DNA of 64,000 bases, taken from Candidatus Levyibacteriota bacterium. GTDB taxonomy: Bacteria; Patescibacteriota; Microgenomatia; Levybacterales; UBA12049. Of this stretch, positions 23,069 to 45,009 are shown in pieces. The stretch is from the NCBI GenBank assembly GCA_030651475.1, contig JAUSEW010000027.1, forward strand, positions 41,553-105,552, in the 5' to 3' direction. A program made the position numbers and the translations under genes. The notes under the pieces were generated by a model, which saw only the letters and a program-made list of their open reading frames with translations, was not told where the DNA came from and searched no databases. Each line of letters opens with the position of its first letter. The stretch's first letter is position 1.

Positions 23069-23827
23069 ATGAAGACTACTATCAAAAGCCCAAAAGTAAT
23101 CGGGATTATCTTGACATACAAACACGCATCTTTTTTGGAAGACCTCTATCACAGTTTACCGGAAGGGGTTTTCGATAGCATCATTGTTTCCAATGACGAG
23201 AGTGGAGATAACATTGGCGTTATTGCCGAAAAGCTTGGTATTCCATATTTTTCCCACCCGCGCTTAGGATACGGAGGTAACATTAAATATGGATTACAAA
23301 AAGCTCTTGAAATGGGTGGGGAATATATGGTGGAAATCCACGGAGACGGACAGTATGGTACTTTGGGTATCATCCCGGGAATTCAAAAAATGAAAAAAGG
23401 TTATGATTTTATCTTAGGTTCGAGATTTACAGATTTAAATCTTCCCTTAAAAGATAAAATGCCGTTTCTTAAGTATTTGGCGAATATCGGCTTGAGTTTT
23501 CTTGATCGTCTAATCCTGCGGTTGCCGCTTTCCGAATTCCACACAGGCTTTCGCATCTACAGCCGGCGGCTTTTGACCAAAGCTGACTTAAAACATACAT
23601 CCAATGATCACTTATTTAGTTTTCAGATAATCGCTCTTGCCGCATACCATAATTTAAAAGTAGGGGAGATTCCTGTGAGAGGTGATTATGCTCACGAACA
23701 TAGTTCGATTAGCATTAGGGAGTCTGTTAAATATACCTTTCAGACATTTGACGTTTTAGCGCAGTATCTTTGGACTCGTTTGGGATTTGAGACCAAGCTT
23801 TTTAAACGTAGCAAACACTCTATATAA
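23069..23827 (+). CDS. Glycosyltransferase, GT2 family (DPM1-like)
   Basis: IGIILTYKHASF...SNDESGDN...GSRF...TGFRIY motifs. Confidence 0.7.
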   Translation: MKTTIKSPKVIGIILTYKHASFLEDLYHSLPEGVFDSIIVSNDESGDNIGVIAEKLGIPYFSHPRLGYGGNIKYGLQKALEMGGEYMVEIHGDGQYGTLGIIPGIQKMKKGYDFILGSRFTDLNLPLKDKMPFLKYLANIGLSFLDRLILRLPLSEFHTGFRIYSRRLLTKADLKHTSNDHLFSFQIIALAAYHNLKVGEIPVRGDYAHEHSSISIRESVKYTFQTFDVLAQYLWTRLGFETKLFKRSKHSI

Positions 23828-25055
23828 TTGTTACCTTCGGAATCGGCACTATAAATTTAACGTTTTTGTTTTTTAGCCACGACTCATTTTTCATAATTGA
23901 GGAAGCGTAATTCCATGCCAAAATTAAAACATAATCGGGAAGATTTTTTTTGATGTGTTCAGGCGGTAATATAGGAATGTGTGTGCCTGGAGTAAATTTT
24001 CCCTGTTTAAATGCGGTCGTGTCTGCAATATAGTCAATTATCTCTGTTCCAATCCCGCAATATTGAAGTAAGGTATTGCCCTTGGCAGCTGCGCCATAAC
24101 CTACTATTTTTTTATTTTGTTTTTTTAGACCGATCAACAGTTTCAATAGTTTTTTCTTGATTTTTTGCGGAACAGTGCCGAACTTCTTGTATGTCTTAAG
24201 ATTATGGAGGCCGTTTTCTTCTTCAAGGTTTTGCATTTTCAGGACTCTTTTGTTAACAGGGAACAATAAGGGCTTATGTCCGGCGAATACGCGTATAGAT
24301 CCGCCTTGAGTATCAACACGCTCAACATCAAATATTTGTAATCCCCAGATATCCAAAAGCTTTACCAAGGGGAAAAGTGAAAAATAACAGATATGCTCAT
24401 GGTAGGTGTTATCGAATTCATTTTTCTTAATTAAATCGCCTAAATATTGCACTTCGAATATAAAAATGCCTTTTTCGTCAAGCAATTTTTTCACGCCTGC
24501 AATTATTCCATGCAAGTTGTTTGTATGGGCTAGAATATTATTGGCGGTGATTATACCGGCATGACCGTATTCTTTCACAATATTTTTGGCAACGTTTAGA
24601 TTAAAAAACAGAGCTTTGGTTTCAATACCATTTCTTCTGGCTATTCTAGCAACATTTTTTGCCGGATCAACGCCTAATACCTTAGCGCCTAATTTTTGAA
24701 AATGCTTAAGAAGTATGCCGTCATTGCTGCCAATATCCAGAATGAACTGTTTTGTTTGGGTAGGAAATTTTCTGTAAACATCTTCAGCGTACTTTCTAAA
24801 ATGCTCATGTAACGGTTGTGATGCCCCGGTAAAATAAGCATAGTCTTCAAACAGCATTTTCCTATCGACCCAATCTTTAAGCTGCGCCAGATGACACGCT
24901 GGGCAATAATAAACCCGTAGCGGGAATTTAAGCTCCGGGCGTTTTAGACCCGCCTTATTTAGGCAAGAATTGGCAAGCGCGATTTTACCAAGATCCAAGT
25001 ATTTAATAAGACGTGGATTACTACAGATAATACATTTTTTATTCTTCTTAAGCAT
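23820..25055 (-). CDS. Zinc-ribbon SAM-dependent C-methyltransferase, TylC3/NDP-hexose C-methyltransferase-like (three-domain architecture)
   Basis: N-terminal CIICSN...CPACH zinc ribbon. Central ILDIGSNDGILL motif I. About 150 aa C-terminal extension as in the C-methyltransferase C-terminal domain family. Confidence 0.6.
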   Translation of the reverse strand: MLKKNKKCIICSNPRLIKYLDLGKIALANSCLNKAGLKRPELKFPLRVYYCPACHLAQLKDWVDRKMLFEDYAYFTGASQPLHEHFRKYAEDVYRKFPTQTKQFILDIGSNDGILLKHFQKLGAKVLGVDPAKNVARIARRNGIETKALFFNLNVAKNIVKEYGHAGIITANNILAHTNNLHGIIAGVKKLLDEKGIFIFEVQYLGDLIKKNEFDNTYHEHICYFSLFPLVKLLDIWGLQIFDVERVDTQGGSIRVFAGHKPLLFPVNKRVLKMQNLEEENGLHNLKTYKKFGTVPQKIKKKLLKLLIGLKKQNKKIVGYGAAAKGNTLLQYCGIGTEIIDYIADTTAFKQGKFTPGTHIPILPPEHIKKNLPDYVLILAWNYASSIMKNESWLKNKNVKFIVPIPKVTII

Positions 25056-29393: not shown

Positions 29394-30476
29394 ATGAAGA
29401 TTATTAGACAGATGGATCCCTGGATTGACAGGGAAGAAGAAAAAGAAGTAATTAAGGTGATGCGATCCGGATGGATAACTGAGGCTGACGAGACAAAAAG
29501 ATTTGAAAAGATGATCGCAGATTTTACAGGGAGTAAGTATTGTTCTGTCGTAACTAATGGAACCGTAAGTCTCTATCTCGCACTTAAAGCATTAGGAATT
29601 GGGGAGGGGGATGAGGTCATCGTGCCGGACATGACAATGGTAGCTTCTCCAAATGCGGTTATTATGGCGAATGCAAAACCTGTTTTTGTAGACATTGAGA
29701 AAGACACATTATGTCTTTCCTTAGATGAGGTTGAAAAAAAGATTTCTAAAAAAACTAAAGCAATTATGATTGTTGCTCTTAACGGTAGAGCGCCTGATAT
29801 GCATAGAGCTCTTAAAATCGCAAAAGACAATAATCTATTTGTTGTTGAGGATGCAGCGCAAGCTCTTGGCTCTTACTTTCATGGAAAACATTTGGGAACG
29901 TTTGGGGATATCGGAAGTTTCTCATTCAGTACCCCAAAAGTGATTACAACAGCCCAAGGAGGAGCGCTTGTTACCGACAGAAAAGACCTTTACGATAAGA
30001 TAATCCGACTGAAAGATTTTGGGAGAGTTAATAGATCATCCCAAAATCACGATGAAATTGGTTTTAATTTTAAGTTTACAGATATTCTCGCAGCAATAGG
30101 AGTCGTACAGATGAAAAAGCTGCCAACGAGGCTTAATAGAAAAAAAGAGATGTACAATAGCTACAAGCAAGAGCTTAAGAATCTAAAGCAAATACAATTT
30201 ATAGCTACAGATCTTTCTCAAACATCTCCTTGGTTTATGGATATTTTTGTTTCCGATCCAAAGGCTCTTCAAGGTTTTCTGAAAAACAAAAATATAGGAA
30301 CCAGACTTTTTTATCCTGCTATTCATACAACCGAACCGTATAAATCAGAAAATCAATATAAAAATTCTTTATGGGCATCGGAGCATGGATTATGGCTTCC
30401 ATCATCAGCTTTCTTAACAGATTCTGATATAATGCATATCTGCAAAGAAATAAAAAGTTTTTATGAAAAAAACTGA
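29394..30476 (+). CDS. DegT/DnrJ/EryC1-family PLP-dependent sugar aminotransferase
   Basis: SFSFSTPKVITTAQGGALVT with Lys present. N-terminal small-domain motifs. Confidence 0.8.
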   Translation: MKIIRQMDPWIDREEEKEVIKVMRSGWITEADETKRFEKMIADFTGSKYCSVVTNGTVSLYLALKALGIGEGDEVIVPDMTMVASPNAVIMANAKPVFVDIEKDTLCLSLDEVEKKISKKTKAIMIVALNGRAPDMHRALKIAKDNNLFVVEDAAQALGSYFHGKHLGTFGDIGSFSFSTPKVITTAQGGALVTDRKDLYDKIIRLKDFGRVNRSSQNHDEIGFNFKFTDILAAIGVVQMKKLPTRLNRKKEMYNSYKQELKNLKQIQFIATDLSQTSPWFMDIFVSDPKALQGFLKNKNIGTRLFYPAIHTTEPYKSENQYKNSLWASEHGLWLPSSAFLTDSDIMHICKEIKSFYEKN

Positions 30477-31545
30477 ACAAGATATCAAAAAAATTCTTAA
30501 CAACAGAACAGTTCTTATAACAGGAGCAGATGGTTTTGTTGCCTCACATCTGACGGAAAAGTTAGTGGAGTACGGATCGAATGTTCACATATTAATTCGA
30601 GCAACTTCTTCCGGAATGCTGCATAATCTTCCCCATCTCAGGGGGAAAATGGTTGTTCATCATGGAGACTTAACAGACAAGCAGGCAATAAAGGAAGTAT
30701 TGAAGATAATAAAAAACGAGGGACCAAAACCGATCATATTTCACTTAGGGGCGCAGGCCCATGTTGGCGAATCTTGGAAAAGATCGTATGAGACATTTAA
30801 CACAAATGCTCTTGGAACATTAAATCTTTTGCAAACAATTGTCGATTTAGATATTGATCTATTTAAGTTGGATACGGCTGGAACCTCTGAAGAATATGGC
30901 AATGTAAATCCTGAAGTTAAAGATCAATACAGATTTGATAAAAATGGTGGTCTTATCTTGGATGAGAAATCACCTTTAAATCCACAGAGTATCTATGCCA
31001 CATCCAAAGTAGCGGCAGATTTTCTAACTCGAAATTTTTATGGTGGATATGGAATTCCTACAGTCGTAACAAGAATGTTCAATAACTATGGTCCTAGACA
31101 GAATCCAAGATTTATAACTGGAACAATCATAACGCAAGCTTTAGATAAGGATTCAGTTGAATTGGGTACTCTAACCCCAAAAAGAGATTTTTGCTTTGTA
31201 GAGGATGGAGCGATGGGACATATAAATGTTGCGCTTTTTGGTAATCCTGGAGAAGTGTATGTTTATGGTTATGGAGAAACGATCTCAATTGGAGATTGGT
31301 ACAACCTGATTATAGAGGTGGGGCGTGAAGAAGGATATTGGAAAGACAAAAAATTAATAAATCGAGCAAGCGGAAAAAGAGGTAGGCTTGGGAAAAGCGA
31401 AGTTGAAGAATTGAGAGTTGACTATACGAAATTAAATAAGCTTACGGGTTGGACTCCAAAATTTTCATGGAAAGAAGGACTTGCAGAAACCATCAAATGG
31501 TATGCTGAAAATAAGGATAAGTGGATAGGGAGGATAGATTGGTAA
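30463..31545 (+). CDS. Gmd-like NDP-hexose 4,6-dehydratase (GDP-mannose 4,6-dehydratase family)
   Basis: Matches remembered E. coli Gmd along its length: VLITGADGFVASHL, IRATSSG, HHGDLTD, HLGAQAHV, TSEEYG, YATSKV...FNNYGPRQ. Contains an unusual ~40 aa insertion. Confidence 0.6.
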   Translation: MKKTEQDIKKILNNRTVLITGADGFVASHLTEKLVEYGSNVHILIRATSSGMLHNLPHLRGKMVVHHGDLTDKQAIKEVLKIIKNEGPKPIIFHLGAQAHVGESWKRSYETFNTNALGTLNLLQTIVDLDIDLFKLDTAGTSEEYGNVNPEVKDQYRFDKNGGLILDEKSPLNPQSIYATSKVAADFLTRNFYGGYGIPTVVTRMFNNYGPRQNPRFITGTIITQALDKDSVELGTLTPKRDFCFVEDGAMGHINVALFGNPGEVYVYGYGETISIGDWYNLIIEVGREEGYWKDKKLINRASGKRGRLGKSEVEELRVDYTKLNKLTGWTPKFSWKEGLAETIKWYAENKDKWIGRIDW

Positions 31546-31546
31546 A

Positions 31547-32479
31547 ATGATTAATGTTGGATTTTGGAAAAACAAAAAGATTCTCGTAACAGGCGGGAAA
31601 GGGTTTGTTGGTAGTCACGTAATTGATAATCTTATAAAAAAGCGTAAAGTTAATCCCTCTGATATCGTGGTTCCGGACAGTAGTAAATTTGACCTTCGTT
31701 TATTTGATAGCGCAAAAAGAGTTGTTAGGGGAATTGACATAGTGTTGCATCTTGCTGCTGACGTTGGAGGTATTGGATACAGCAGCAGTCATCCTGCGAC
31801 CCAAATGAGGAATTGTTTTTTGATGGATGCGAATATATTTGAAGCCGCAGCGAAAGAAAAAGTGCAAAAGTTCGTTTGCGTATCTTCTGCGGTAGCGTAT
31901 CCTGTTGATGCCATATCACCTCTTAATGAAAAAGATTTATTCAAAGGTGAGCCGGCTAAAGGTGGATATGGCTACGGTTTTGCTAAAAGGATGTCAGTTG
32001 TTATGACTAGGGCTTATAAGGAAGAAAAAGGATTAAATGCCTGCGTTTTGCTTTCAGCAAATAGTTATGGACCAAGACAGGATTTTGATTTGGAAAGCGG
32101 TCATGTTATACCTTCATTAATACGGAAATGCTTTACGTTTGAAAGGCTTGAGGTTTGGGGAGACGGAAGTCAAATTAGAGATTTTTTCTACGTCAAAGAT
32201 TTCGCAGAGGGTATTGTCTTAGCAGCTGAAAAACTCGAAGGTTCGGAACCCGTGAATATAGGTTCAGGATCAGGAACAAGCATAAAAGAACTAGTAAAAT
32301 TGATTGTTAGACTAACGGGTTTTAAAGATGAAGTATATTTTGATACAACAAAACCACAAGGGCAAAAAATAAGGGTTGTAGATATTAATAGGGCACGAAA
32401 ATTAATGGGTTTTAAACCCAAATACTCGTTAGAAAAAGGTCTTTTAGAAACGATTAGTTGGTACAAAAAGAGTTTATGA
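31547..32479 (+). CDS. GDP-4-keto-6-deoxymannose 3,5-epimerase/4-reductase family (GDP-L-fucose synthase Fcl/ColC-like)
   Basis: Collinear with remembered E. coli Fcl: [31 protein letters not shown] (cf. [24 protein letters not shown]), [24 protein letters not shown]. Confidence 0.7.
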
Positions 32480-33044: not shown

Positions 33045-33989
33045 TTATGTATTTATTAGGGATTTGTATTTGTTGACAATTCGTTTTATTCCCTTCTTAT
33101 AGTCTATTGTAGGCTTCCAGCCAAGTCGTGAAATTTTTGATGTATTAGCAACGAAGTTTGTGATTCCCACTGCTTTATGAAATTCCGGTGGCTCAATTTC
33201 GACAATTTCTGATTTTTTTTCTGTTATTTCGTGTAAGCAACTAATCATATCTTTAAAAAGAACAGATTTTCCAAAACCTATCAGAAAAGTATCATTATCT
33301 ATATTTTTATTTTCCAAAAAATTTAAAGCAGAAATTATATCGTCAACATGAATATAATCTCTGCAAAAATTTCCACCCCTATAGACTGAAAGAGTTTCTC
33401 CTTTTACTGCCTGCATTATAATATAATTAAGTACGCCCTTTTTTTTATTATCATAATCTTCATTTTCACTATATACATTGGTCAATCTACATATTAAATA
33501 TGGTATGTCATAAAGACGGGAATATAGCTTAATTATGCTTTCAGCGCAGAGTTTTGTTGCAGGATAAATTGCAAGAGGATTTGTTTTGGACTCTTCGTTA
33601 ATTGGAATTTTAGTTTGGTCATATACATTCCCGTAAACGAAAAAAGTTGAGAGAAAAACTATTTTCGGTTTCTTTTTTAAGTCTCTACACGTTTCCAAAA
33701 GCCTAATAGTGCCATTAATATTTGTTTCGACATCAAGATAGGGATTGGTGAGTACGTTGTAATTATCAACAGTGCTTGCGAGATGATAAATAATGTCAAT
33801 TCCTTCAAGGTCTTGTCTCTGTATGTTCGCGAGATCCTTCAGGATTATTTTTGTATTCTTTCTAGCTAATCTCTCCTTGTGTTTTTCAGAGCGTGTCAAT
33901 ATCGTAACGCTTCCCTCAAGAGAATTGGCCAGAGCAGATCCTATAAGGCCATAGCCTCCCGTAATAAGATAAGAAGTATTTTTCGTCAT
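33045..33989 (-). CDS. NAD-dependent sugar-nucleotide epimerase/dehydratase (extended SDR)
   Basis: YLITGGYGLIGSAL Rossmann motif and YPATK catalytic motif. Confidence 0.7.
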   Translation of the reverse strand: MTKNTSYLITGGYGLIGSALANSLEGSVTILTRSEKHKERLARKNTKIILKDLANIQRQDLEGIDIIYHLASTVDNYNVLTNPYLDVETNINGTIRLLETCRDLKKKPKIVFLSTFFVYGNVYDQTKIPINEESKTNPLAIYPATKLCAESIIKLYSRLYDIPYLICRLTNVYSENEDYDNKKKGVLNYIIMQAVKGETLSVYRGGNFCRDYIHVDDIISALNFLENKNIDNDTFLIGFGKSVLFKDMISCLHEITEKKSEIVEIEPPEFHKAVGITNFVANTSKISRLGWKPTIDYKKGIKRIVNKYKSLINT

Positions 33990-34062: not shown

Positions 34063-35274
34063 ATGCTTAAAAGCAATCAGGGAACAATAAATAAAAAAAT
34101 ATTGTATGCAGAGGCAGTATATGGAGATGAAGAAAAACAGGCGGTAATGCGTTCAATGGACAACAAATGGTTGGCTTCAGGTCCTTTGGTTAAAGAATTC
34201 GAAGAAAAGGTAGCTAAACTTTTTGGGAAAAAATATGGAATTGCCGTAAATTCCGGTTCTTCGGCAGATCTTCTTGCGATTCAAAGTCTCCGTCTTCCGA
34301 AAGGCGCTGAAGTAATTACTCCGGCGTGCACATTTTCAACTACTGTTTCCTCCATTGTTCACAATAATCTAGTCCCTGTTTTTATAGATACTGTGATTGG
34401 CAGATATACCATTAATGAAGATTTGGTAGAAAAAGCTATTACAAAAAAAACCAAAATTATTTTTGTTCCTCAATTAGTTGGTGGCGTTTGCGATATGGCT
34501 AGGCTTAGAAAAATAGCTAACAAACATAATCTTATTTTAATAGACGATTCTTGTGATACATTCGCTCCTTATTTTAATTCCAAAACTGCGGCTTCATATA
34601 GCGATTTAACAACGACCTCATTCTATGGATCACACATAATTACGGCTCTTGGATTTGGCGGAATGGTTTTGGTCGATGACGAAAAACTAAGGGACAGAAT
34701 TTATACTCTTCGTGATTGGGGTAGAGTAGGAAACGATAAAGAAGCATTCGAAAATAGATTTAATTTTTCTATAGACGAAATTCCATATGATGCAAAATTT
34801 CTTTATTCGGAGCTTGGATATAACTTAAAAATGAATGAGGCAGCTGCGGCATTTGGTCTTGTGCAGTTAAGAAGGTTGGATGGTTTTCTAAAGAAACGTA
34901 CCTATAACTTTAAAAAACTTAAAAAATTCTTTAGTAAATATGAGAAGTGGTTTGTTCTTCCTTATCTTCTGGAAGGAGCGCAAACAAATTGGCTTGCTTT
35001 TCCTTTGACGGTTAAAAAAGATGCGCCTTTTTCCCGTTATGATTTTTTGAAACATATGGAATCTAAAGGGATTCAAACAAGAGTACTTTTTTCAGGAAAT
35101 ATCGTTAGGCACCCGGTCTATAAAGATATTAAATTTAAGGTTAGTGGATCGTTAAAAAATGCAGATACCATTATGGCATCCTCTTTATTATTGGGTTGCC
35201 ATCAAGCTCTTACAGACACAGACATAGATTACATTGCCAAATCTGCAGACGAATTCTTCAAGAGATATGCTTAA
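34063..35274 (+). CDS. DegT-family PLP/PMP enzyme with His replacing the active-site Lys: candidate NDP-4-keto-6-deoxyhexose 3-dehydratase (ColD/E1-like)
   Basis: Aligns with the DegT fold but reads SFYGSHIITALGFGG where the paralogs have SFxxxK. His-for-Lys is the known hallmark of ColD and E1 dehydratases. Confidence 0.55.
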   Translation: MLKSNQGTINKKILYAEAVYGDEEKQAVMRSMDNKWLASGPLVKEFEEKVAKLFGKKYGIAVNSGSSADLLAIQSLRLPKGAEVITPACTFSTTVSSIVHNNLVPVFIDTVIGRYTINEDLVEKAITKKTKIIFVPQLVGGVCDMARLRKIANKHNLILIDDSCDTFAPYFNSKTAASYSDLTTTSFYGSHIITALGFGGMVLVDDEKLRDRIYTLRDWGRVGNDKEAFENRFNFSIDEIPYDAKFLYSELGYNLKMNEAAAAFGLVQLRRLDGFLKKRTYNFKKLKKFFSKYEKWFVLPYLLEGAQTNWLAFPLTVKKDAPFSRYDFLKHMESKGIQTRVLFSGNIVRHPVYKDIKFKVSGSLKNADTIMASSLLLGCHQALTDTDIDYIAKSADEFFKRYA

Positions 35275-36286
35275 TCCTCTGGTCACAATAATAATTGTAA
35301 ATTGGAACGGTAGAGCTCTTTTGGAAGATTGCCTTTCTTCCTTGTTGAAAATTTCTTACAAAAATAAAGAAGTTACCTTTGTAGATAATGCATCAACTGA
35401 TGGTTCTTTGGAATACGCCAAAAAAATGTACCCGGGGATGAAAATTATCCAAAATTCAAAAAATTTAGGTTATGCCGAAGGCCATGAAGAGGCAATAAAA
35501 AAAGCAAAAGGAGAATTAGTTTTGCTTTTAAGTACAGACACTATTGTCAAAGAAAATATGCTGTCTGCCATGGTTTCAGCTATTTACAAGGAAAAAAATA
35601 TTGGAGCGGTTATGCCAAAACTGCTTATGCATCCTAATACGAATTTAATAGATTCCATTGGATCTTTTTTTGTCCGAAGCGGAGTTTCGTATCACTATGG
35701 TCGGGAAAAAGACTCAAAACTCCCAATTTATAATAAAAAAATGGAGATTTATTCCGCCAAAGGAGCATGCCTTCTTTTTAGAAAAGAAGTTCTTGAGAAA
35801 ACTGGATTATTCGATAAAGATTATTTCGCATATTTTGAGGAGACTGATTTGTGCCACAGGATATGGCTCTCCGGCTATAAAGTTATATATACTCCGGACA
35901 CCGAGGTTTACCATAAGGGAGCAGGAACTTCAAAAAAAATTGCAAGAGCATACATACAATTTCACTCATTTAAAAATAGACTTATGACTTATCTTAAAAA
36001 TTTATCAGCAGTAAATATAATAAAAGTATTGCCTCTAACTCTTTTGGTTTATCAGGCTATTTTTCTCCTTTTCTTATTAACCGGAAAATTTAGAATTGCT
36101 TTTGCTATCCAGGGGGCAATTATCTGGAATTTTTTGAATATTGGAAAAACTTTGAAAAAAAGAAAATACGTCCAGGAGGAAATTAGAAAGGTAAGAGATG
36201 AGGACTTTTTACCTAACATTACAAGGAAAGTAAGACTTAGCTATTATTATTATATGTTTAGAGGCTTAAACTTGTATAAGGATTAA
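35267..36286 (+). CDS. Glycosyltransferase, GT2 family, with C-terminal TM helices
   Basis: VTIIIVNWNGRALL...VTFVDNASTDGS...LLSTDTIV motifs. The start is set at the ATGCTTAA overlap (35267) rather than the upstream ATG (35234). Confidence 0.7.
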   Translation: MLNPLVTIIIVNWNGRALLEDCLSSLLKISYKNKEVTFVDNASTDGSLEYAKKMYPGMKIIQNSKNLGYAEGHEEAIKKAKGELVLLLSTDTIVKENMLSAMVSAIYKEKNIGAVMPKLLMHPNTNLIDSIGSFFVRSGVSYHYGREKDSKLPIYNKKMEIYSAKGACLLFRKEVLEKTGLFDKDYFAYFEETDLCHRIWLSGYKVIYTPDTEVYHKGAGTSKKIARAYIQFHSFKNRLMTYLKNLSAVNIIKVLPLTLLVYQAIFLLFLLTGKFRIAFAIQGAIIWNFLNIGKTLKKRKYVQEEIRKVRDEDFLPNITRKVRLSYYYYMFRGLNLYKD

Positions 36287-37453
36287 ATGAAGAATAATAG
36301 GAAAATTAGAATTGTAATTTCGCTTCACGAATTCTATGAGGCAGGTTCTGCATATGAGCTTAGGAATTTTTTGCTAGAAAATTATAAGGCGGACATGCTT
36401 TTCATCTCCCACCCCCTCCTTCTAAGAAAGGAGTCCTACAATTTTAGTTCGAGATATGAATATTTTAAAGACAGCATATTGATAAAAAAAAACAATGCTT
36501 TTCATTGGGTTTTGCCGGAACCTTTCTTGTATATTAAGGATTTTCTATACACACTGATATGGACAATTTTTATTGGTCAAAAATATGATCTATTCTTTGG
36601 TTACAACCCTCTAGACGCATTTTGTGGCATTCTGTTAAGAAGTATTGGAAGAGTTAAAAAAGTTGTTTATTACAATATAGACTTCACCCCAATTCGTTTT
36701 CAGAACAAAATCCTTGACTACATTTATCATCTGTTCGATAAGTACGCTGCTTACTACGCTGATCTTAATTGGGTTGGGACAAAGAGAACTATAAAAGCAA
36801 GAATAAATTATGGGTTATCTCTAAAAAGAATGGCGAAAACAATTATAGTTCCAGACGGCAATCATTCCCTCAGGATAAAACAAAAAAAGTCCTCGCAAGT
36901 AAAAAAAGAAAACATAGTTTACTTGGGAGGTATATACAAAAAGCAGGGAATAGATCTCATTATTGAGGCTCTCCCAAAGCTCAATAAATTGATTAAAGGT
37001 TTGGAGTTCACAGTCATAGGAGATGGTGAATATCTAGACACACTCAAAGAAAAGGTAAAGAGTTTAAAACTTAATAACGTAAGATTTCTAGGATACATAG
37101 AAGATTTATTTAAAGTAGAAGATATCTTAACGAGTTCGGGAATAGCGGTCGCACCCTACCTTCCCGATAAGAATAGTTTTACTTACTATTCCGATCCGGG
37201 GAAACCAAAATGGTATCTTGCCTGTGGCTTGCCAGTTATTATAACGAATGTTCCGGCGATTGCCGAGGTAATAGAACGAAGAAAGGCGGGAAAAATGATA
37301 AACTACGATAAAGAGGAATTAATAAAAGCGGTTTTAGAAATAATGCATAAAGGAAATTATGAGGAATACAGAAAAAATTCAAGGAAAATGGGACTTTCTT
37401 TTGATTGGTCGATTATTTTTAAAAAGGCATTATCGCAAACTTTGAGAATATAA
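36287..37453 (+). CDS. Glycosyltransferase, GT-B fold (GT4-like, divergent)
   Basis: C-terminal domain with IVYLGGIYKKQGIDLIIEA...FTVIGDGEY and ACGLPVIITNVPAIAEVI, typical of GT-B C-domains. Confidence 0.55.
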   Translation: MKNNRKIRIVISLHEFYEAGSAYELRNFLLENYKADMLFISHPLLLRKESYNFSSRYEYFKDSILIKKNNAFHWVLPEPFLYIKDFLYTLIWTIFIGQKYDLFFGYNPLDAFCGILLRSIGRVKKVVYYNIDFTPIRFQNKILDYIYHLFDKYAAYYADLNWVGTKRTIKARINYGLSLKRMAKTIIVPDGNHSLRIKQKKSSQVKKENIVYLGGIYKKQGIDLIIEALPKLNKLIKGLEFTVIGDGEYLDTLKEKVKSLKLNNVRFLGYIEDLFKVEDILTSSGIAVAPYLPDKNSFTYYSDPGKPKWYLACGLPVIITNVPAIAEVIERRKAGKMINYDKEELIKAVLEIMHKGNYEEYRKNSRKMGLSFDWSIIFKKALSQTLRI

Positions 37454-37457
37454 ACGC

Positions 37458-39092
37458 ATGAAAATTAACAGACTGATTATCTTTTCGATAATTTTATTTG
37501 CTATTATTTTAGCAACTTATCATCAGCTATTTCAAACTTTCTATCAGCAGGATGAATGGATAGCTTTGGGTCATATAATGACTCAAACATTCCCCAAATA
37601 TTTTGAACAGTTTAGTAAAACAGCTCTCTTAGGTGGTGGAGGAAGACCGTTATCAGTTCCCTTGCAATATTTTTTGTTTAGCAACTTTCCTTTTCAGGCT
37701 GCCCCATTTGTAGTATTTGCTTTAGTGTTCCATTTTCTGAATAGCTTATTGGTCTTTCTTTTGGCTAAAAAAATAACAAGAAATTTCTTAATTGCTTCTA
37801 TTTCAGCTATTTTTTTTGCTACCTCTTCGGTTTCCCATCAGGCAGTGTCTTGGATTGGGGCAAGTCCAACAACCTTGCCTTCAGCCTTTTTTGCCTTGTT
37901 TTCTATTTTACTTTACTTTCATTTTCTGGAAAATGAGAAGCGAAAGTTTTTTTATCTATCTTTATTTTTCGCTTTGATTTCTTTCTTTTTCAAAGAAAGC
38001 GGTATATTTATTTTTATTCTCCTGCCCTTAATTTATAGGATCTATAAGAAGGTCTCTTTTTATAATTCGCTCAAAAAACATTTTGTAATAATAATTTATT
38101 TATGCGTTGCTGTTTTATCAAGAGTTTACGACCTTTTTTTTGTAAATACTGGCTTAACAACAACCTTCGTGACACGAAACAGCAATACGGTAGAAAGGAT
38201 AATCCTGCATTCTTTTGTCTACCCTTTTGAGTCTCTCTCTCAAGTATTTATATTCCCCTCAATTATGTGGAAATTTTCCCATTTTTTTCTTTCCGTTGTT
38301 TTTCCTTTCGTACTGCACAGTCCTTCAGGAGTCCTAGCGACGGAAACAATGGGGGCCGAAGTTATTTCAATAGCGCTTTCCTCTATTATCTTAATTCTCA
38401 TATTTTTAGTTTACAGAAACGATAAGAAAAACAGGAAAATCATTTTGTTTACTTTACTATTTTTCTTCTTAAGTTTTCTTCCCTATGTTTTTCTTGAAAG
38501 AGGAAATGCATATCTTGACTCGCGCTATTTCTATCTTGGTGTTGTTCCCGCATCTATTATTTTCTCTTTGTTGGTTAATTCAATAAAAAATAGATTAAGT
38601 AAAAACTATTTTTTTCCAATTGCGCTTTTGATAATTATATTTTTTTATAGTCAGATAAAATTTATAAATAATGAACTTGGCTATCAAGTAAATCTTGCGA
38701 GGGAAAGGAAAAATTTTCTGATGTCTTTGAAAAAACTTTATCCAGCGGTACCTACAAATTCCGTTTTTTATATAACTGGTAATCGTGACTTTTATGTTCC
38801 CGATCATAAGATTCCTTTTCAACAGGGAATGGGATATACCCTTATGGTTTGGTATTATAAAACCGGAATTATACCAAAAGAATTTATGAATTCCTTTCTC
38901 TGGGATATTAAAGAGGAGGGCTACAGAGAAAAAGAGAATAAAGGATTTGGTTACTATTGGAACCTAGGTCATCTTTCAACTGATTTAAAAAGAAACGAAA
39001 TAAATAAAAATCGAGTCATAGCTCTTTTTTATGACGCTGACAAAGAAAAACTCGTAGATATAACTAAAAGCGTGAGAGAGGAGCTGAAATAG
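37458..39092 (+). CDS. Polytopic membrane protein, GT-C-like. Paralog of the C-terminal half of 56712..59870.
   Basis: YQQDEWIALGHIM DE motif after TM1. About 12 TM helices. Collinear similarity to residues ~560-1052 of the fusion protein (FFKESGIFIFILLPLIY vs LFHELGIMAPFLVILYD). Confidence 0.45.
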   Translation: MKINRLIIFSIILFAIILATYHQLFQTFYQQDEWIALGHIMTQTFPKYFEQFSKTALLGGGGRPLSVPLQYFLFSNFPFQAAPFVVFALVFHFLNSLLVFLLAKKITRNFLIASISAIFFATSSVSHQAVSWIGASPTTLPSAFFALFSILLYFHFLENEKRKFFYLSLFFALISFFFKESGIFIFILLPLIYRIYKKVSFYNSLKKHFVIIIYLCVAVLSRVYDLFFVNTGLTTTFVTRNSNTVERIILHSFVYPFESLSQVFIFPSIMWKFSHFFLSVVFPFVLHSPSGVLATETMGAEVISIALSSIILILIFLVYRNDKKNRKIILFTLLFFFLSFLPYVFLERGNAYLDSRYFYLGVVPASIIFSLLVNSIKNRLSKNYFFPIALLIIIFFYSQIKFINNELGYQVNLARERKNFLMSLKKLYPAVPTNSVFYITGNRDFYVPDHKIPFQQGMGYTLMVWYYKTGIIPKEFMNSFLWDIKEEGYREKENKGFGYYWNLGHLSTDLKRNEINKNRVIALFYDADKEKLVDITKSVREELK

Positions 39093-40165
39093 TGTCAAAA
39101 AAACCTCTAGTTAATATAATTATAGTTACCTACAATCAGTTTAAGTTTATAAGAGAATGTATTAGTTCAGTAATAAATTCGGATTATTCAAATATAAAAA
39201 TATATCTAGTAGATAACAATTCGAATGAAAAAGATTACAAAAAGCTTTACGAAGATTTTAAAAAAAACAGAAAAATTACTTTCTTCAGGTTAAGTGAGAA
39301 TAGAGGTTTCGGAGCGGGGTGCAATTATGTTTTAAAGCTAATAAAAAACGGCTATATAGTTTTTCTAAATGATGACGCCATAGTTACGAAAAATTGGTTA
39401 AATCCAATTATTGACTATATGGAAAATCATCCCGATGTTGGAGCGGCTCAGCCAAAAATTAAAGATATGAAAAGAAAAAAATATTTTCAGCATGCTGGAG
39501 CGGCGGGAGGTTTTATGGATGTTTATGGATATCCTTTCTGCCGAGGGAGAATTTTCTACGACGTCGAGGAGGATAATGGTCAATACGACAACGTAATTGA
39601 CGTTGTATGGTGTTCGGGGAATTGTTTGGTAACTAGATTGGAAGTGCTAAAAAAAGTGGGTTTTTTTGATGAAATATTCTTTATGTATGCGGAAGAAGCG
39701 GATCTATGTTGGAGAATGAATAAAGCAGGTTACAGATTAGTCTTCATTCCTTCGTCTGTTGTTTATCACTATGGCATTGGTGGCCCCAATAGGCAGTCTT
39801 ATAAAAAAATATTCTGGCATCACAGAAATGGCTTAATAATGTTAATGAAAAATTATTCAATAACGGAAATTATAAGATACCTTCCCGTAAGATTTTTTTT
39901 GGACTTTGTAACTTTTTGGTATTATCTTCTCGCAAACAGAATAATGTCAAATGCGCTTGCTTTAGCTGTTGCATATTTGAGCTTTCTTTATTTACTTCCA
40001 AAAGTTACATACGGGAGATTTAAAAAATTCCCACAAAAAAAAATTAACAAAACCCTATCTTATCCACTGTATAACGGTAGTATTGTTTTTGATTATTTTT
40101 TATTGGGTAAGAAAAAATTTACGGATTTAAATAAGATACATATGGAAGATAAAATTTTGCAATGA
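39092..40165 (+). CDS. Glycosyltransferase, GT2 family (WbbL/rhamnosyltransferase-like), GTG start, C-terminal TM helices
   Basis: NIIIVTYNQFKFI...YLVDNNSNE...GFGAGCN...FLNDDAIV motifs. Confidence 0.75.
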   Translation: MSKKPLVNIIIVTYNQFKFIRECISSVINSDYSNIKIYLVDNNSNEKDYKKLYEDFKKNRKITFFRLSENRGFGAGCNYVLKLIKNGYIVFLNDDAIVTKNWLNPIIDYMENHPDVGAAQPKIKDMKRKKYFQHAGAAGGFMDVYGYPFCRGRIFYDVEEDNGQYDNVIDVVWCSGNCLVTRLEVLKKVGFFDEIFFMYAEEADLCWRMNKAGYRLVFIPSSVVYHYGIGGPNRQSYKKIFWHHRNGLIMLMKNYSITEIIRYLPVRFFLDFVTFWYYLLANRIMSNALALAVAYLSFLYLLPKVTYGRFKKFPQKKINKTLSYPLYNGSIVFDYFLLGKKKFTDLNKIHMEDKILQ

Positions 40166-40231
40166 AGATTCCTGGTATTCAGTAAACCACTTTTTTGTCT
40201 TCTTTAGCGATAAAGATTAAGATTACGTTTT

Positions 40232-40870
40232 TCATCTCCTCACCCCTTTTTTATTATAATTATCTATATCGGCTTGTTTAAAAAATTTAACTCCCACATA
40301 ATATTTATTACCTTTATCTACAAAATAACCATAGGAGCGATCTTTAAAAGTACAAGCCCGTAATCTGTATATGGTCTCCTTATCAAATTCCTGAAAGCTA
40401 GTTATTTCTTTTTTCCAATGATAAGTACCTTTTCCAATCTGTGGCTTACTCTCGATTTTACCCATCTTAATTTTTGGCCAGACATCAATGAATAATTTAA
40501 ACATTTCTTTATTGATTCTCTCTTCCAGGTCGCTTGCTATATCCGTAGGATAAACCTTGACCTCCTTTTGGGCGATAACTTCTCCTTTGTCAACCTGTTC
40601 ATTCACATAATGGATTGTTACCCCCGCTGGTGTACCGTCAATTAAAGGCCAAATATGAGTATGCACACCCCTATTGTATGGGAGATAGCCTGGGTGCAGA
40701 TTTATTGTTGGTACCCTTAACTGATCTTTGGTTAATATTTTATCGTAGTATGCCACGATACGAAAATCAGGATCTTTACTGACAATAGTTTCTCCCTGTT
40801 GTTTTAAATAATCTTTAACCTGCTGACCTATTGGTTTGATTGATAAAACTTGAATTTTCATAATGAGCAC
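40232..40870 (-). CDS. Sugar N-formyltransferase (Fmt/PurN/ArnA-N-terminal-domain family)
   Basis: INLHPGYLPYNRGVHTHIWPLIDGTPAGVTIHYVNEQVDKGEVIAQ carries the Asn/His/Asp formyltransferase catalytic signature. No tRNA-binding C-terminal domain (212 aa), as in sugar N-formyltransferases. Confidence 0.7.
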   Translation of the reverse strand: MLIMKIQVLSIKPIGQQVKDYLKQQGETIVSKDPDFRIVAYYDKILTKDQLRVPTINLHPGYLPYNRGVHTHIWPLIDGTPAGVTIHYVNEQVDKGEVIAQKEVKVYPTDIASDLEERINKEMFKLFIDVWPKIKMGKIESKPQIGKGTYHWKKEITSFQEFDKETIYRLRACTFKDRSYGYFVDKGNKYYVGVKFFKQADIDNYNKKGVRR

Positions 40871-41415
40871 AAAATTGATGGTCCCGGTTGGGTCTCTATG
40901 AATTCTAATTTAATACTCCCAAACATCTCCTGAGTATATAGTTTTTTACCTCCCGGAAGATTAACATAGGTATTCCCACTCAATGCTTTTATAATATCTT
41001 TAATTCCATCCACGAATTTACCGTGTGGAATTTCTGATGATAAATAAATAGGCGTCTTAATTTTTAAGACTTGACATATGGCCTTAATAGTTAGATAAAT
41101 ATTATGACTTAATGTATATTTTTGATCCATTATGTCTACAAAAAGGGAATATATATGATAATTAAATCTAGGGGTAAATAGGCGAAACCTTTTTTTATCC
41201 GCCTCAATGTCTTTAAAATAACATTCATTAATTTTGGCATAATCTGAATGTTTTCTTAACCGAAAAGTAAATAGTTTAGGAAAATAATTTCGATTAATCC
41301 AACCGCCTTTTATATATTTAGCGTCATCATATAAAACAAATTTATCAACACTTTTAATGAGCTTAAAAAATCCAGGATACGGAAATAAATAGGGTTGCAT
41401 AACAGCAATTTTCAT
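40858..41415 (-). CDS. WbqC-like family protein (function unknown; recurrently linked to amino-sugar/formyltransferase genes)
   Basis: N-terminus MKIAVMQPYLFPYPGFFKLIKSVDKFVLYDD matches my memory of the WbqC-like family N-terminus. Confidence 0.5.
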   Translation of the reverse strand: MKIAVMQPYLFPYPGFFKLIKSVDKFVLYDDAKYIKGGWINRNYFPKLFTFRLRKHSDYAKINECYFKDIEADKKRFRLFTPRFNYHIYSLFVDIMDQKYTLSHNIYLTIKAICQVLKIKTPIYLSSEIPHGKFVDGIKDIIKALSGNTYVNLPGGKKLYTQEMFGSIKLEFIETQPGPSILCSL

Positions 41416-42077
41416 TATTCACAAACGAAAAAAATACTGGAACATAAATCTGGATATTTCTTGCCCAATTGATAACAACCTTCCATATATTCTGGGGAGA
41501 CAATTTTCCCTAATTGATCTATCTGAAAATTAGCTAAGGCTTTAAAAAAGACCCCTCCTCTATGGACAACCTTCAGTCCTGCTTTTTTAATATCCCGTTC
41601 CATTGTGTCTAACGTATATGTTCTGTAATGCCCATGTTTTATCTCGTCTTTAGTAACTGCTGCATTATGGTCAATTAACCCCATATGAACAGCTATTTGT
41701 CTAGATGGAGCATTGGCGTTGGGACAGGCTATGAATGCTCTGCCTTTGAGATATTCCTTGACTTGTTTTAAAGCCAATACTGCATCCTTAATGTGTTCTA
41801 AGGTATGAACCATCACGATATTATCGTATTTTTCAGGCAATTGAGCCTTTTCAATGGTTGTTTTATAAAACTTAACTTTTACTTCAGGCTCAAATTCAGG
41901 ATCAACGCACGTCACGTTACTAAATCGCATCATCAGTTTTTTAGTCATTACATTTTTCCAACTTCCCACTTCCAATAAATTCCCCTTTTTGAAGAAGGGT
42001 TCGAAAGACCTGATCATATATTCGTGCATCAATGCGTCGAAATTATAGAAGTATAAGCCCGAAACCATATTTCCCAT
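41415..42077 (-). CDS. Class I SAM-dependent methyltransferase
   Basis: GNLLEVGSWKN motif I-like and IVMVHTLEHI motif. Confidence 0.5.
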   Translation of the reverse strand: MGNMVSGLYFYNFDALMHEYMIRSFEPFFKKGNLLEVGSWKNVMTKKLMMRFSNVTCVDPEFEPEVKVKFYKTTIEKAQLPEKYDNIVMVHTLEHIKDAVLALKQVKEYLKGRAFIACPNANAPSRQIAVHMGLIDHNAAVTKDEIKHGHYRTYTLDTMERDIKKAGLKVVHRGGVFFKALANFQIDQLGKIVSPEYMEGCYQLGKKYPDLCSSIFFVCE

Positions 42078-42879
42078 AGGTATTGCCCAAATAAATCATG
42101 TAGTCACCAAACACTGTTGGGTAGTGCTGCATTTCCGAATCCCATCCTTTTTTAGAAAGTGGAATTTTAAAATCAGTCCTAGTCCAGTTTTCTAAGTCAG
42201 TTGAGTATGCGTATCCAATTCTATAGTTGGCCTTATCCCAATCCCTATAAGTAAAATACATGTGGTACTTTCCATCTCTGTAATGGACATCTGGTCCTGC
42301 CTGACACTCGTTTTCTGGTCCTTCAATTAATAGTTTGCCATTAAGAGCAATTTTGTAAACTGGTTTATGGGTGTTTTTGTACTTTAACCACTTTGTACCG
42401 CTTATGTAAAACAAATACCATTTATTATTAAAATGTCTAATCTTTGGTCCACCTTTAAGATATGGCGAATCAATGCTATCTGTTAAAATGGGTCCTTCGC
42501 CAACTTTTGTGAAATGTTCTCCATCTCCTATAGCTTTGCCAATAGCGATGGTAAAAGGGATTGAACCGTGCGGACGTGTCCAACCAGCATAGTACATTAA
42601 ATAATCTTTACCATCTTTGATGACTGACACTGGATAAGTACCATACTCATCAAAGGTTCCAGGCTTACCTAGTGGCAGAAGCGGTCCTTTATTAACCCTT
42701 AGAATCTTCCAATCTTCATCAAAATCAGCATAGCCCGCTACACTTACCGGATCGTTATCTTTTTGGTGTCTGTGGGTAAAATAGACTCTAACAAAACCAT
42801 CCATCTGTATGACAGAAGGGGCTTGAGCATAATCCAAACCATAATCTTGTGGTCTAAAAATTCTCCCTAATTTTTTCAT
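42043..42879 (-). CDS. Five-bladed beta-propeller protein of the GH43/GH32/GH130 superfamily (glycosidase or glycoside-phosphorylase-like)
   Basis: FRPQDY...APSVIQMDGFVRVYFTHR and repeated aromatic/Gly-rich blade-like segments (YLMYYAGW, WYLFYISG, YHMYFTY). The family assignment is tentative. Confidence 0.4.
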   Translation of the reverse strand: MKKLGRIFRPQDYGLDYAQAPSVIQMDGFVRVYFTHRHQKDNDPVSVAGYADFDEDWKILRVNKGPLLPLGKPGTFDEYGTYPVSVIKDGKDYLMYYAGWTRPHGSIPFTIAIGKAIGDGEHFTKVGEGPILTDSIDSPYLKGGPKIRHFNNKWYLFYISGTKWLKYKNTHKPVYKIALNGKLLIEGPENECQAGPDVHYRDGKYHMYFTYRDWDKANYRIGYAYSTDLENWTRTDFKIPLSKKGWDSEMQHYPTVFGDYMIYLGNTYGKYGFGLILL

Positions 42880-43835
42880 GTTGTCACCCCTTTAACAATT
42901 TTAATTATTGAATCCTGTTCCTTATTGGCTAGTTCATAATATAAAGGTAAGCACAAGGCCAGCTTGGCCATATTTTCTGCCAGCGGACAGCTTTGGTTTC
43001 CAAAGATATTGTTTAATGATGGATAAAAGTATCTTCTTGGGAAGATGCCATGCTTATTAAGCGCTTCAATAATCCTTGTGGGATCGGAAGTACACATTAA
43101 AGGATAATAACTCACATCCTTATAATTTGTGCCAAATGCATCATTGTATCTATCAACTAGCTTTTGATACTTTGCAACCACCTTGTCTATATCTTGTAAA
43201 TTACATAGTCCCATTGCCGCGTGGAATTCAGACATTTTAGCGTTTATTCCTACCCCCTGAAAAGCATATTCACTCTTATAGCCAAAATTTCTCATCCATC
43301 TTGCTTTTTCAGCTATTTCATCGTTATTGGTTACAACCGCACCCCCTTCTGCTGTCTGAAATATCTTAGTTGCGTGGAATGAAACGATGGACACATCCCC
43401 ATAATTCATAATTGATTTACCTTTAACTTTGACTGCAAAGGCATGAGAAGCATCGTAAATAACAGGTCTTGCTTTAATCATTTGGGGTATGCCGTAGGTG
43501 TGGGTTACTAAGGCCGGACCCTTGAATTCCTCGTCTAAATCAACAAACTTGGGCGTTATACCTAGCCACATTGGAGCAGAAATAGTTGCAATAAAACTAA
43601 AGGGGGAAACATATATCTCTTTTTTAACATCCAGTGCTTTTAGAGCGATTTCGATTGCCGAAGTGCCATTAGATACACAAACTACGTGTCTTACGCCCCA
43701 ATAGGCTTTTAATTTATTTTCCAACTCCTGAACGAGATTTCCATCATTGGTTAACCAATTAGTCTTCCATATCTTTTTAAGATATTTATTATACTCTATT
43801 AGAGGCGGTAAATAAGTCCTAGAAACAAAGATCAT
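42876..43835 (-). CDS. DegT/DnrJ/EryC1-family PLP-dependent sugar aminotransferase (compact, 319 aa)
   Basis: VSIVSFHATKIFQTAEGGAVVT with Lys present. Confidence 0.75.
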   Translation of the reverse strand: MIFVSRTYLPPLIEYNKYLKKIWKTNWLTNDGNLVQELENKLKAYWGVRHVVCVSNGTSAIEIALKALDVKKEIYVSPFSFIATISAPMWLGITPKFVDLDEEFKGPALVTHTYGIPQMIKARPVIYDASHAFAVKVKGKSIMNYGDVSIVSFHATKIFQTAEGGAVVTNNDEIAEKARWMRNFGYKSEYAFQGVGINAKMSEFHAAMGLCNLQDIDKVVAKYQKLVDRYNDAFGTNYKDVSYYPLMCTSDPTRIIEALNKHGIFPRRYFYPSLNNIFGNQSCPLAENMAKLALCLPLYYELANKEQDSIIKIVKGVTT

Positions 43836-44004
43836 ATTTATCTAAAAAATTTGAAATTCATTCGCTCTTTTATCACACAATCCTAACACACCGATTGTCC
43901 AATTGCAATTCAGTATTTATTAATATTATAATGTGAACTAACATTGCGTCGTAGTTTCGCAATTAAGTTAAAAATAAAAGCCCAAGCAAAATTGTACTAA
44001 TTTT
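43836..44004. promoter_or_regulatory. Largest intergenic gap (169 bp), divergent, with a TATTATAAT element; candidate promoters for the N-formyl-sugar operon (-) and the long + strand operon (44005..63432)
   Basis: attaatattataatgtga read directly. It sits at the head of about 19 kb of co-directional, mostly overlapping genes. Confidence 0.35.
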
Positions 44005-45009
44005 ATGATTAAATGGCCAAAAGTATCACTTGCCCTATTTACCTTAAATGGGGGTGAAGGCGTAAGGAGGTGCTTGGAATCAGTTAGAAAACAAGTATAC
44101 CCAAAAGATAAAATTGAAATTATCGTAATCGATAATAATTCTACAGATGACAGTGTAGACATAGCCAAAAAATATACAAATAAAATAGTTGTAAACAGTA
44201 GGGATGGTTATTTGAATCGAGCAGAGTCGATGAGAATGGCGACTGGCGACTTCGTTTTTATGATACTTGAACAGGATATTGAACTTAGAAGTAAGTATTT
44301 TCTTCAAAAGATGATTAGTCCATTAATTGAAGACGAAAGATTGGTTGCAAGTTTTACAAGGGAGTATCCCAAAAAAGATCAGCCTTGGGTTACAAGATTT
44401 ATCTCTTATAATCCTGCTCAGTGCGATCCCCTTTTCGAATATTTAACACCATCAATTAAAAGCACAATTGTTGAAAAAAAACAAAATTATTTTATCTGTA
44501 AATTTATTGAAGGTAAAATTCCTCCAGTAACGCATATGTTTTTTAGGATTTCTGCTCTTAAAAAATCTGGCGTTTGGAATCAGAAAAGAGATGCCGATCA
44601 CGATACTGTAATAAAACTTATAGAGTATGGATATAATTTATTTGCTTATGTTCCTGATGCAGGCGATTATCATTATCATGCCAAAAATTTAAAAGAACTC
44701 ATCGGGAAAAGAATAAGAAATTTAAATAGACATTATTTTATCTATCATGAAACTACCAAGTATAAATGGGTTGATGTAAACAATAAACAAGAAGTAATAA
44801 AAATGATAATATGGGTTCTTTACGCCAACTCATTAATTTTTCCAGCAATAAGAGGAATTATTAGATTTATAAAATATAAGGATTGGGCATTATTGCTCGA
44901 ACCTGTTATTGCTGTTTCCGTAACAGATGTGCTTATTTGGACATTTCTAAGAAACAAAGCGGGAAGAAAAATAATTATCGATTCACTAAGATCTCTTATG
45001 TTAAAATAA
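44005..45009 (+). CDS. Glycosyltransferase, GT2 family
   Basis: VSLALFTLNGGEG...IEIIVIDNNSTDDS motifs. Confidence 0.65.
   Translation: MIKWPKVSLALFTLNGGEGVRRCLESVRKQVYPKDKIEIIVIDNNSTDDSVDIAKKYTNKIVVNSRDGYLNRAESMRMATGDFVFMILEQDIELRSKYFLQKMISPLIEDERLVASFTREYPKKDQPWVTRFISYNPAQCDPLFEYLTPSIKSTIVEKKQNYFICKFIEGKIPPVTHMFFRISALKKSGVWNQKRDADHDTVIKLIEYGYNLFAYVPDAGDYHYHAKNLKELIGKRIRNLNRHYFIYHETTKYKWVDVNNKQEVIKMIIWVLYANSLIFPAIRGIIRFIKYKDWALLLEPVIAVSVTDVLIWTFLRNKAGRKIIIDSLRSLMLK

Follow-up and report, generated by a model that had tools for sequence, protein, structure and literature searches.

A histidine-type nucleotide-sugar 3-dehydratase homolog in a Patescibacteria glycan-synthesis island

What does a protein with the fold of the sugar aminotransferases do when histidine stands in place of the lysine that carries pyridoxal 5'-phosphate (PLP)? 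This question is raised by a gene at positions 34063-35274 (plus strand) of a 64,000-nucleotide stretch of a Candidatus Levyibacteriota genome (contig JAUSEW010000027.1; hereafter, the window), a single open frame of 403 amino acids encoding a homolog of the His-type nucleotide-sugar 3-dehydratases that use PLP or pyridoxamine 5'-phosphate (PMP). A sequence-only reading had placed this protein with ColD, the GDP-4-keto-6-deoxy-D-mannose 3-dehydratase of Escherichia coli O55 (2GMS/3B8X), and E1, the CDP-6-deoxy-L-threo-D-glycero-4-hexulose 3-dehydrase of Yersinia pseudotuberculosis (AscC/DdhC/RfbH; 3BCX). We find that the gene very likely encodes a nucleotide-sugar 3-dehydratase of this known kind, as judged from sequence, and that the protein lacks most of the iron-sulphur (Fe-S) ligands of E1, the enzyme to which it is closest.

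Histidine at the Schiff-base lysine position

The protein matches Pfam DegT_DnrJ_EryC1 (PF01041) over residues 22-393 with 292.8 bits, and an exact-sequence lookup of its 403 residues returned no match. Its active-site motif, SFYGSHIIT (34618-34644, plus strand), places Ser190-His191 at the position of the Schiff-base lysine, with the His codon at 34633-34635. As the sequence-only reading had claimed, three DegT paralogs in the window keep the canonical lysine at this motif position, and all three motifs could be located: SFYATKNMT (14922-14948) in the Lys-type open reading frame (ORF) 14442-15494 on the plus strand, SFSTPKVIT (29922-29948) in the plus-strand aminotransferase paralog 29394-30476, which served as comparator, and SFHATKIF (43359-43382) in ORF 42876-43835 on the minus strand.

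Alignment to ColD and E1, the check that the same reading had proposed, bore out the substitution. His191 falls on E1 His220, a column occupied by 'h' in 3bcx and by 'k' in 3bb8, which is the H220K mutant, and the Schiff-base lysine of GDP-perosamine synthase (sffgnK) aligns with it. It also corresponds to ColD residue 188, as based on a MAFFT alignment and on a 'Ser+5' register shared by our protein (S186...H191), ColD (S183...H188) and E1 (S215...H220); entry 3b8x is the H188N mutant of ColD. Pairwise HMMER alignment to ColD shifted the motif by one residue and was not used for the register. In a 130-sequence MAFFT alignment, for which two of the three window paralogs passed the coverage filter, the column holds lysine in these two paralogs and histidine in 127/127 non-mutant homologs, ColD 3b8x excepted. 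Among close homologs (64-96% identity) the motif SFY[GA]SH is present in 120/120, and the substitution is therefore not a chance or sequencing event. The positions expected to hold the cofactor are invariant in a 27-sequence alignment (SGSS 64-67, T90/F91, D162, S186 and N254); by family homology we take D162, S186, S64-S67, T90/F91 and N254 to supply the pyridine-nitrogen Asp, the phosphate-binding Ser and Gly-Ser residues, and the stacking aromatic.

The closest solved protein is Yersinia E1 (288 bits), followed by ColD (174 bits), with genuine aminotransferases scoring lower. An AlphaFold2 model of the protein (predicted local distance difference test, pLDDT, 85.6; predicted template modelling score, pTM, 0.87) has E1 as its top Foldseek match (template modelling score, TM, 0.89; 36% identity) and then ColD (TM 0.84), and the TM scores of 0.79-0.89 to many DegT-family structures indicate the aminotransferase fold. 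The best NCBIfam model is RfbH (PRK15407), at 373.4 bits and below its equivalog cut-off of 423, and pipelines of the Joint Genome Institute label close homologs 'CDP-6-deoxy-D-xylo-4-hexulose-3-dehydrase'. With E1 and then ColD as the nearest solved proteins and RfbH as the best family model, assignment to the ColD/E1 group is supported.

Could the protein, its histidine notwithstanding, serve in vivo as a sugar aminotransferase or as some other PLP enzyme, for instance an epimerase? Its fold is that of the sugar aminotransferases, SpnQ (the TDP-4-keto-2,6-dideoxy-D-glucose 3-dehydrase of Saccharopolyspora spinosa) transaminates when no reductase is present, and so does E1 H220K (PMC8987622). 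Wild-type ColD and E1, however, do not transaminate under such conditions (PMC8987622), and a histidine cannot form the internal aldimine. The residue is moreover conserved across the whole dehydratase-related superclade, and the window already has its three Lys-type DegT aminotransferases. A role other than dehydration thus seems unlikely to us.

Iron-sulphur ligands, family relationships and the cofactor cycle

The [2Fe-2S] motif of E1 was reportedly defined by Agnihotri et al. in 2004 as C-X57-C-X1-C-X7-C (C193, C251, C253 and C261), a spacing that fits the 3bcx sequence. Only the first of these ligands remains in our protein, as C164; C251, C253 and C261 have no counterparts. The E1 loop RDWGRdCyCapGCDntCkkRF is replaced by RDWGRVGNDKEAFENRF, which holds no cysteine, and the matching Cys-free segment LRDWGRVGNDKEAFENRFN (residues 216-234; 34708-34764, plus strand) is 5 residues shorter in the alignment to 3bcx. 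This loop has no cysteine in 115/116 scorable close homologs, and none has more than one. The cluster itself is present in E1 and SpnQ and absent from ColD (PMC8987622).

To place this loss within the family, we searched 1.84 billion cluster representatives (50% identity) exhaustively with HMMER and obtained 1,242 clusters with E<=1e-30. Among the best 150 of these, 127 span the whole domain, and every one of the 127 carries the histidine. Their loops contain at least three cysteines in 58 representatives (Fe-S type, including E1) and none or one in 69. In a neighbour-joining (NJ) tree rooted on the Lys paralogs, which is crude and whose topology is only a guide, our protein falls in an all-Cys-less clade of 38/127 representatives (hereafter, the query clade) that is separate both from the Fe-S clade holding E1 and from a smaller Cys-less clade holding ColD. 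Under the criteria used, only two positions tell the query and Fe-S clades apart, and at both of them the query clade agrees with the ColD clade. At position 190, directly before the histidine, serine is found in 33/38 query-clade members, 8/11 ColD-clade members, 12/21 of the other Cys-less representatives and 4/58 of the Fe-S type, 50/58 of which have alanine. At position 246, phenylalanine is found in 33/38 query-clade members, 8/11 ColD-clade members and 4/21 of the other Cys-less representatives (tyrosine in 16/21), and the Fe-S type has tyrosine in 47/58. Ser190 corresponds to ColD Ser187, which was mutated together with H188 in 3GR9 (ColD H188K/S187N, by entry title).

Our protein thus shares with ColD the absence of the cluster, the Ser-His dyad (S187-H188 in ColD) and the Phe at the 246-equivalent position; it differs from ColD in overall sequence (~28% identity, 174 bits) and in its separate NJ clade. 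With E1 it shares the histidine, the RDWGR motif, the C193-equivalent cysteine and full-length colinearity; it differs in having Ser-His-Ile for Ala-His-His and Phe246 for Tyr. The 3GR9 variant is reportedly the one that converts ColD into an aminotransferase. A further His-type protein with a short Cys-free loop (SFYAGHH; lrafgrnp---dyrlgrf) is PDB 9WVY, a 'putative NDP-4-keto-6-deoxyglucose-3-dehydratase' on which we found no publication; it matches ours with only 134 bits and has Gly-His-His where ours has Ser-His-Ile.

The sequence-only reading had held that absence of an E3-type reductase would favour a ColD-type mechanism, and no such reductase was found. Among the ORFs of the 64 kb window none matches Fer2, FAD_binding_6 or NAD_binding_1, no real gene in it carries a ferredoxin/FNR sequence motif, and no E3-type reductase is found in the neighbourhoods of the related loci L001, L002, L008 and L010. 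The CDP pathway is likewise missing, in that the best score in the window for CDP-glucose 4,6-dehydratase (TIGR02622) is 83 bits against a cut-off of 278, and no window ORF of at least 150 amino acids has the NTP_transferase domain of the nucleotidyltransferases, which include glucose-1-phosphate cytidylyltransferase. Our locus differs in this from that of E1. A DAO-family FAD oxidoreductase at 18423-19550 (plus strand) is no reductase of the E3 type; it recurs in the glycan islands of relatives, at the start of L008 and at 3688-4743 in L002/L003. We also considered whether E3 is fused to Fe-S-type proteins only, and there is no such contrast: both groups fuse to short-chain dehydrogenase/reductase (SDR) and RmlD-like domains.

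In equivalog score, Fe-S motif, E3 partner and CDP-pathway genes alike, the protein is not E1 proper. It could still be a true E1-type enzyme that performs two one-electron reductions through a protein-bound Fe-S cluster, with an E3-like or ferredoxin/flavodoxin reductase encoded elsewhere. E1 is its closest relative in sequence and fold, Cys164 is kept and is invariant among close homologs, a dedicated E3 is not obligatory, as SpnQ shows (PMC8987622), and the search was confined to 64 kb of the genome. Against this, the protein has lost three of the four cluster ligands along with part of the loop, and no set of four conserved cysteines in the clade substitutes for them: C89, C143, C164 and C379, conserved among close homologs in the 27-sequence alignment, were examined as an alternative site and rejected because C89 and C143 vary in the wider clade and C164 is alanine in 10/38 members. 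Together with the lack of an E3 in the window or the four related neighbourhoods, and with the score under the RfbH equivalog cut-off, this makes E1 chemistry very unlikely.

We instead favour, as moderately probable on the sequence evidence, a DegT-fold 3-dehydratase with a ColD-like PLP/glutamate cycle and with SDR and glycosyltransferase family 2 (GT2) partners. The cycle is inferred from the Ser-His and Phe246 residues shared with the ColD clade, the loss of the Cys loop and the absence of E3. PMP would be joined as a Schiff base to the keto carbon C4 of a nucleoside diphosphate (NDP)-4-keto-6-deoxyhexose, and His191 would abstract the C4' proton, with expulsion of the C3 hydroxyl. The three missing Fe-S ligands and the lack of a nearby E3 make it most likely that the enamine adduct is released hydrolytically as in ColD, which would give NDP-4-keto-3,6-dideoxyhexose, ammonia and PLP, and L-glutamate would serve to restore PMP. 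Reduction at C4 would then fall to the adjacent divergent SDR, and the GT2 encoded by the overlapping downstream gene would add the 3,6-dideoxyhexose to a Patescibacteria surface glycan. The mechanistic classes of His-type 3-dehydratases are reviewed in PMC8987622.

Several points weigh against this explanation. Of the two reference enzymes, the protein resembles E1, which has the Fe-S cluster, more closely in sequence, and an E3-like or ferredoxin partner could lie outside the 64 kb that were searched. The Ser190/Phe246 signature is confounded by phylogeny, and bootstrapping of the crude NJ tree recovered the exact query clade in 33/60 and the ColD core in 49/60 replicates. The AlphaFold2 model, made as the structural check that had been proposed for the histidine, is good overall, but the loop 189-197, which holds His191, is its only segment with pLDDT <50, and the model does not confirm the position of the histidine. 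The window has no nucleotidyltransferase that would point to the substrate, and its candidate 4,6-dehydratase, described below, is not kept next to the gene in relatives. Finally, we found no biochemical data for any member of the query clade.

An unrelated feature of the family concerns the surroundings of Cys164. Homologs P0121, P0144, P0159, P0196, P0227 and P0263 carry a ~260-residue insertion with classic intein ends (DDS|C...VHN|CD), which sits directly before the conserved cysteine equivalent to the E1 ligand C193 (Cys164, codon 34552-34554) and is found in both Cys-less and Fe-S-type 3-dehydratase homologs.

Pathway partners and the nucleotide carrier

Two neighbours accompany the dehydratase gene across relatives. 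Divergent from it lies an extended SDR (33045-33989, minus strand; Pfam Epimerase, 140 bits), a probable NDP-4-keto-3,6-dideoxyhexose 4-reductase. It has the NAD motif GxxGxxG as well as YxxxK, but not the Asp/Glu pair of the 4,6-dehydratases, in place of which it reads 'STFFVYG'. An SDR ortholog, 75-80% identical, adjoins the dehydratase homolog in L001, L004 and L008. Overlapping the 3' end of the dehydratase gene is a GT2 (35234-36286, plus strand; Pfam Glycos_transf_2), the probable transferase for the product sugar, and a GT2 at 61-89% identity lies directly downstream of the homolog in L001, L004, L005 and L008. The whole SDR-dehydratase-GT2 triad is kept in L001, L004 and L008 at 61-95% identity. 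In the window, this GT2 is followed by a GT4, a 544-residue ORF of unknown function and another GT2.

So tight and wide a linkage, together with frequent SDR fusions in the clade, would also fit a 3-dehydratase for which the SDR, adjacent or fused, restores PMP by reduction and would pass a hydride from NAD(P)H to the PMP-glucoseen adduct in a reaction free of both Fe-S and glutamate. Such chemistry is without precedent, however, and members of the Fe-S type have the same SDR/RmlD-like fusions, in which the SDR is the next pathway enzyme (4-ketoreductase). The ColD-like Ser-His signature also points to hydrolytic release, and we hold reductive regeneration to be highly improbable.

Which sugar the ColD-like 3-dehydratase would make depends on its substrate, for which the window offers one candidate source. 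The gene at 30463-31545 (plus strand; Pfam GDP_Man_Dehyd, 206.8 bits) encodes a candidate NDP-hexose 4,6-dehydratase with GTSEEYG and YATSK motifs that could supply the 4-keto-6-deoxy substrate. Its NCBIfam scores are all below cut-offs (LegB 184 bits, dTDP-glucose dehydratase 142 bits, Gmd 106 bits against 415), and its best PDB match is a dTDP-glucose 4,6-dehydratase (114 bits). It is followed by a GDP-L-fucose-synthase-like (Fcl/ColC-like) epimerase/reductase (31547-32479, plus strand; NCBIfam GDPFucSynFcl, 199.6 bits against a cut-off of 500) with PDB matches to GDP-L-fucose synthases at 129-136 bits. The two genes, which lie 2-3 kb upstream, would together mimic Gmd/ColC, and with GDP as carrier the Fcl-like protein would round off a colitose-type route. 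ColD itself needs no reductase partner. The local 4,6-dehydratase differs from the ColD pathway in not being a Gmd equivalog, and counterparts of the two genes are not beside the homolog in L001 or L008.

Other evidence hints at dTDP. Fusion proteins in the query clade join the dehydratase to SDRs, RmlD-like domains or a GT2, and also to a bona fide RmlB (TIGR01181, 388 bits; cut-off, 365) or a bona fide RmlC (TIGR01221, 165 bits; cut-off, 155.75), both of the dTDP pathway and in this unlike the setting of ColD; in L010 an RmlC-like gene directly follows the homolog. The clues to the carrier are therefore mixed, with the RmlB/RmlC fusions of the clade hinting at dTDP and the local Fcl-like gene at GDP. 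NCBIfam and PDB matches of the neighbouring SDRs were also tried as a guide to nucleotide specificity, and this approach was rejected because the scores lie far below equivalog cut-offs and mix dTDP with GDP. The sequence-only reading had proposed a 3,6-dideoxyhexose of the colitose, abequose or paratose class; a 3,6-dideoxyhexose is indeed implied, but naming its class goes further than the evidence on nucleotide carrier and stereochemistry.

The fusions to authentic RmlB and RmlC form the basis for reading dTDP-4-keto-6-deoxyglucose as the substrate. A bolder proposal builds on this, namely that the query clade is a third lineage of His-type 3-dehydratases, of E1-like descent, Fe-S-free, with the Ser-His/Phe246 residues of ColD, probably acting on dTDP-4-keto-6-deoxyglucose and apparently spread by phages. 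On the sequences at hand we advance it tentatively, as possible but somewhat less likely than not. A comparable set of enzymes is found in the GDP-heptose pathways of Campylobacter jejuni HS:5 and HS:11, for which a 3,6-dideoxyheptose route from 4,6-dehydratase through a PLP/Glu-dependent C3-dehydratase and a C5-epimerase to a C4-reductase has been shown experimentally (PMC10440746). As judged from the pathway description, the same domain set (4,6-dehydratase, Glu/PLP C3-dehydratase, cupin C5-epimerase and SDR C4-reductase) is fused or adjacent to the query clade; the C. jejuni C3-dehydratases differ in being ColD-cluster enzymes that act on GDP-heptose (PMC10440746).

Links to dTDP-sugar enzymes also raise the question of whether the protein resembles SpnQ or UrdQ and converts an NDP-4-keto-2,6-dideoxyhexose to a 2,3,6-trideoxy sugar. 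SpnQ belongs to the same His-type family, has no dedicated E3 and acts on a dTDP sugar. It has the [2Fe-2S] motif, which our protein lacks, and needs ferredoxin/flavodoxin reductase pairs (PMC8987622), and its substrate is a 2,6-dideoxy sugar; among the scanned ORFs there is no signature of a Nudix-type 2,3-dehydratase or a 3-ketoreductase. An SpnQ/UrdQ-like activity is accordingly extremely unlikely.

Distribution, surrounding island and significance

A protein search of genome contigs recovered at least four loci, enough for taxonomy and not for statistics. A colinear locus with 95% identity comes from a metagenome-assembled genome of a 'Patescibacteria group bacterium', and named homologs at ~70-77% identity come from Candidatus Levybacteria and Daviesbacteria, with one close-relative record labelled 'archaeon'. 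Locus L005 (CAYPUE010000004.1), binned as 'uncultured Gammaproteobacteria', is colinear with window positions 34063-45009 at 88-96% protein identity and is probably mis-binned. We found no literature linking Patescibacteria with dideoxyhexoses or rfbH. The remark in the sequence-only reading that such a locus is unusual outside Gram-negative O-antigens proved overstated at the sequence level, given the 1,242 clusters and the histidine in every full-length representative among the best 150.

Relatives also occur on contigs of viral appearance. L009, a metagenomic contig of 99 kb that encodes an SU10-like portal and major capsid protein, has at 10001-11218 a homolog with 70% identity; two SDR genes follow it. 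A scan of IMG/VR added 19 predicted viral contigs (L011-L029) with relatives at 42-64% identity, most of which have an SDR-like gene immediately upstream. These contigs suggest that deoxysugar genes are phage-borne.

The whole window (1-64000) is one glycan-synthesis island with at least 14 GT2/GT4 genes. Five PMT/YfhO-like membrane proteins of the glycosyltransferase C (GT-C) type start at 52, 9690, 16097 (minus strand), 25109 (minus strand) and 59867, and the island also holds a formyltransferase (40232, minus strand), a WbqC (40858, minus strand) and a carbamoyltransferase (45011). An NDP-hexose C-methyltransferase with Methyltransf_13/14 domains (23820-25055, minus strand) and a split transketolase-like pair with N and Pyr domains (1932-3103, minus strand) adjoin an SDR and a GT2, a hint of branched-chain sugar synthesis elsewhere in the island. 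Three large plus-strand ORFs, 46713-50111, 50482-52401 and 56712-59870 (1132, 639 and 1052 amino acids), are without a Pfam match. The first two have homologs near the dehydratase homolog in L008 and L010 (34-50% identity), and the L010 counterparts carry weak GT-C_AftD matches; the large ORFs may be novel GT-C glycosyltransferases.

The fold, the histidine signature and both mechanisms are already textbook knowledge, and our protein adds to a known group of His-type 3-dehydratases. What is mildly new is a large lineage, close to E1 in sequence and probably working like ColD, that is found in Patescibacteria and on predicted viral contigs. This large 'E1'-labelled clade (38/127 full-length representatives) probably works without the Fe-S/E3 chemistry of E1, and the KEGG-style label 'CDP-4-dehydro-6-deoxyglucose reductase, E1' probably misnames both its nucleotide and its mechanism. 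The contrast of Ala-His with Ser-His may predict from sequence which 3-dehydratases need a reductase. If the third-lineage proposal is true, the Fe-S/E3 requirement was lost or gained more than once in the family, and Patescibacteria surfaces would bear dTDP-derived 3,6-dideoxyhexoses, for example 3-deoxy-rhamnose (ascarylose) or sugars of the paratose/abequose type. 3,6-Dideoxyhexoses are best known as immunodominant determinants of enterobacterial O-antigens; the locus described here suggests that an ultrasmall, host-dependent Patescibacteria organism would decorate its surface glycan with such a sugar.

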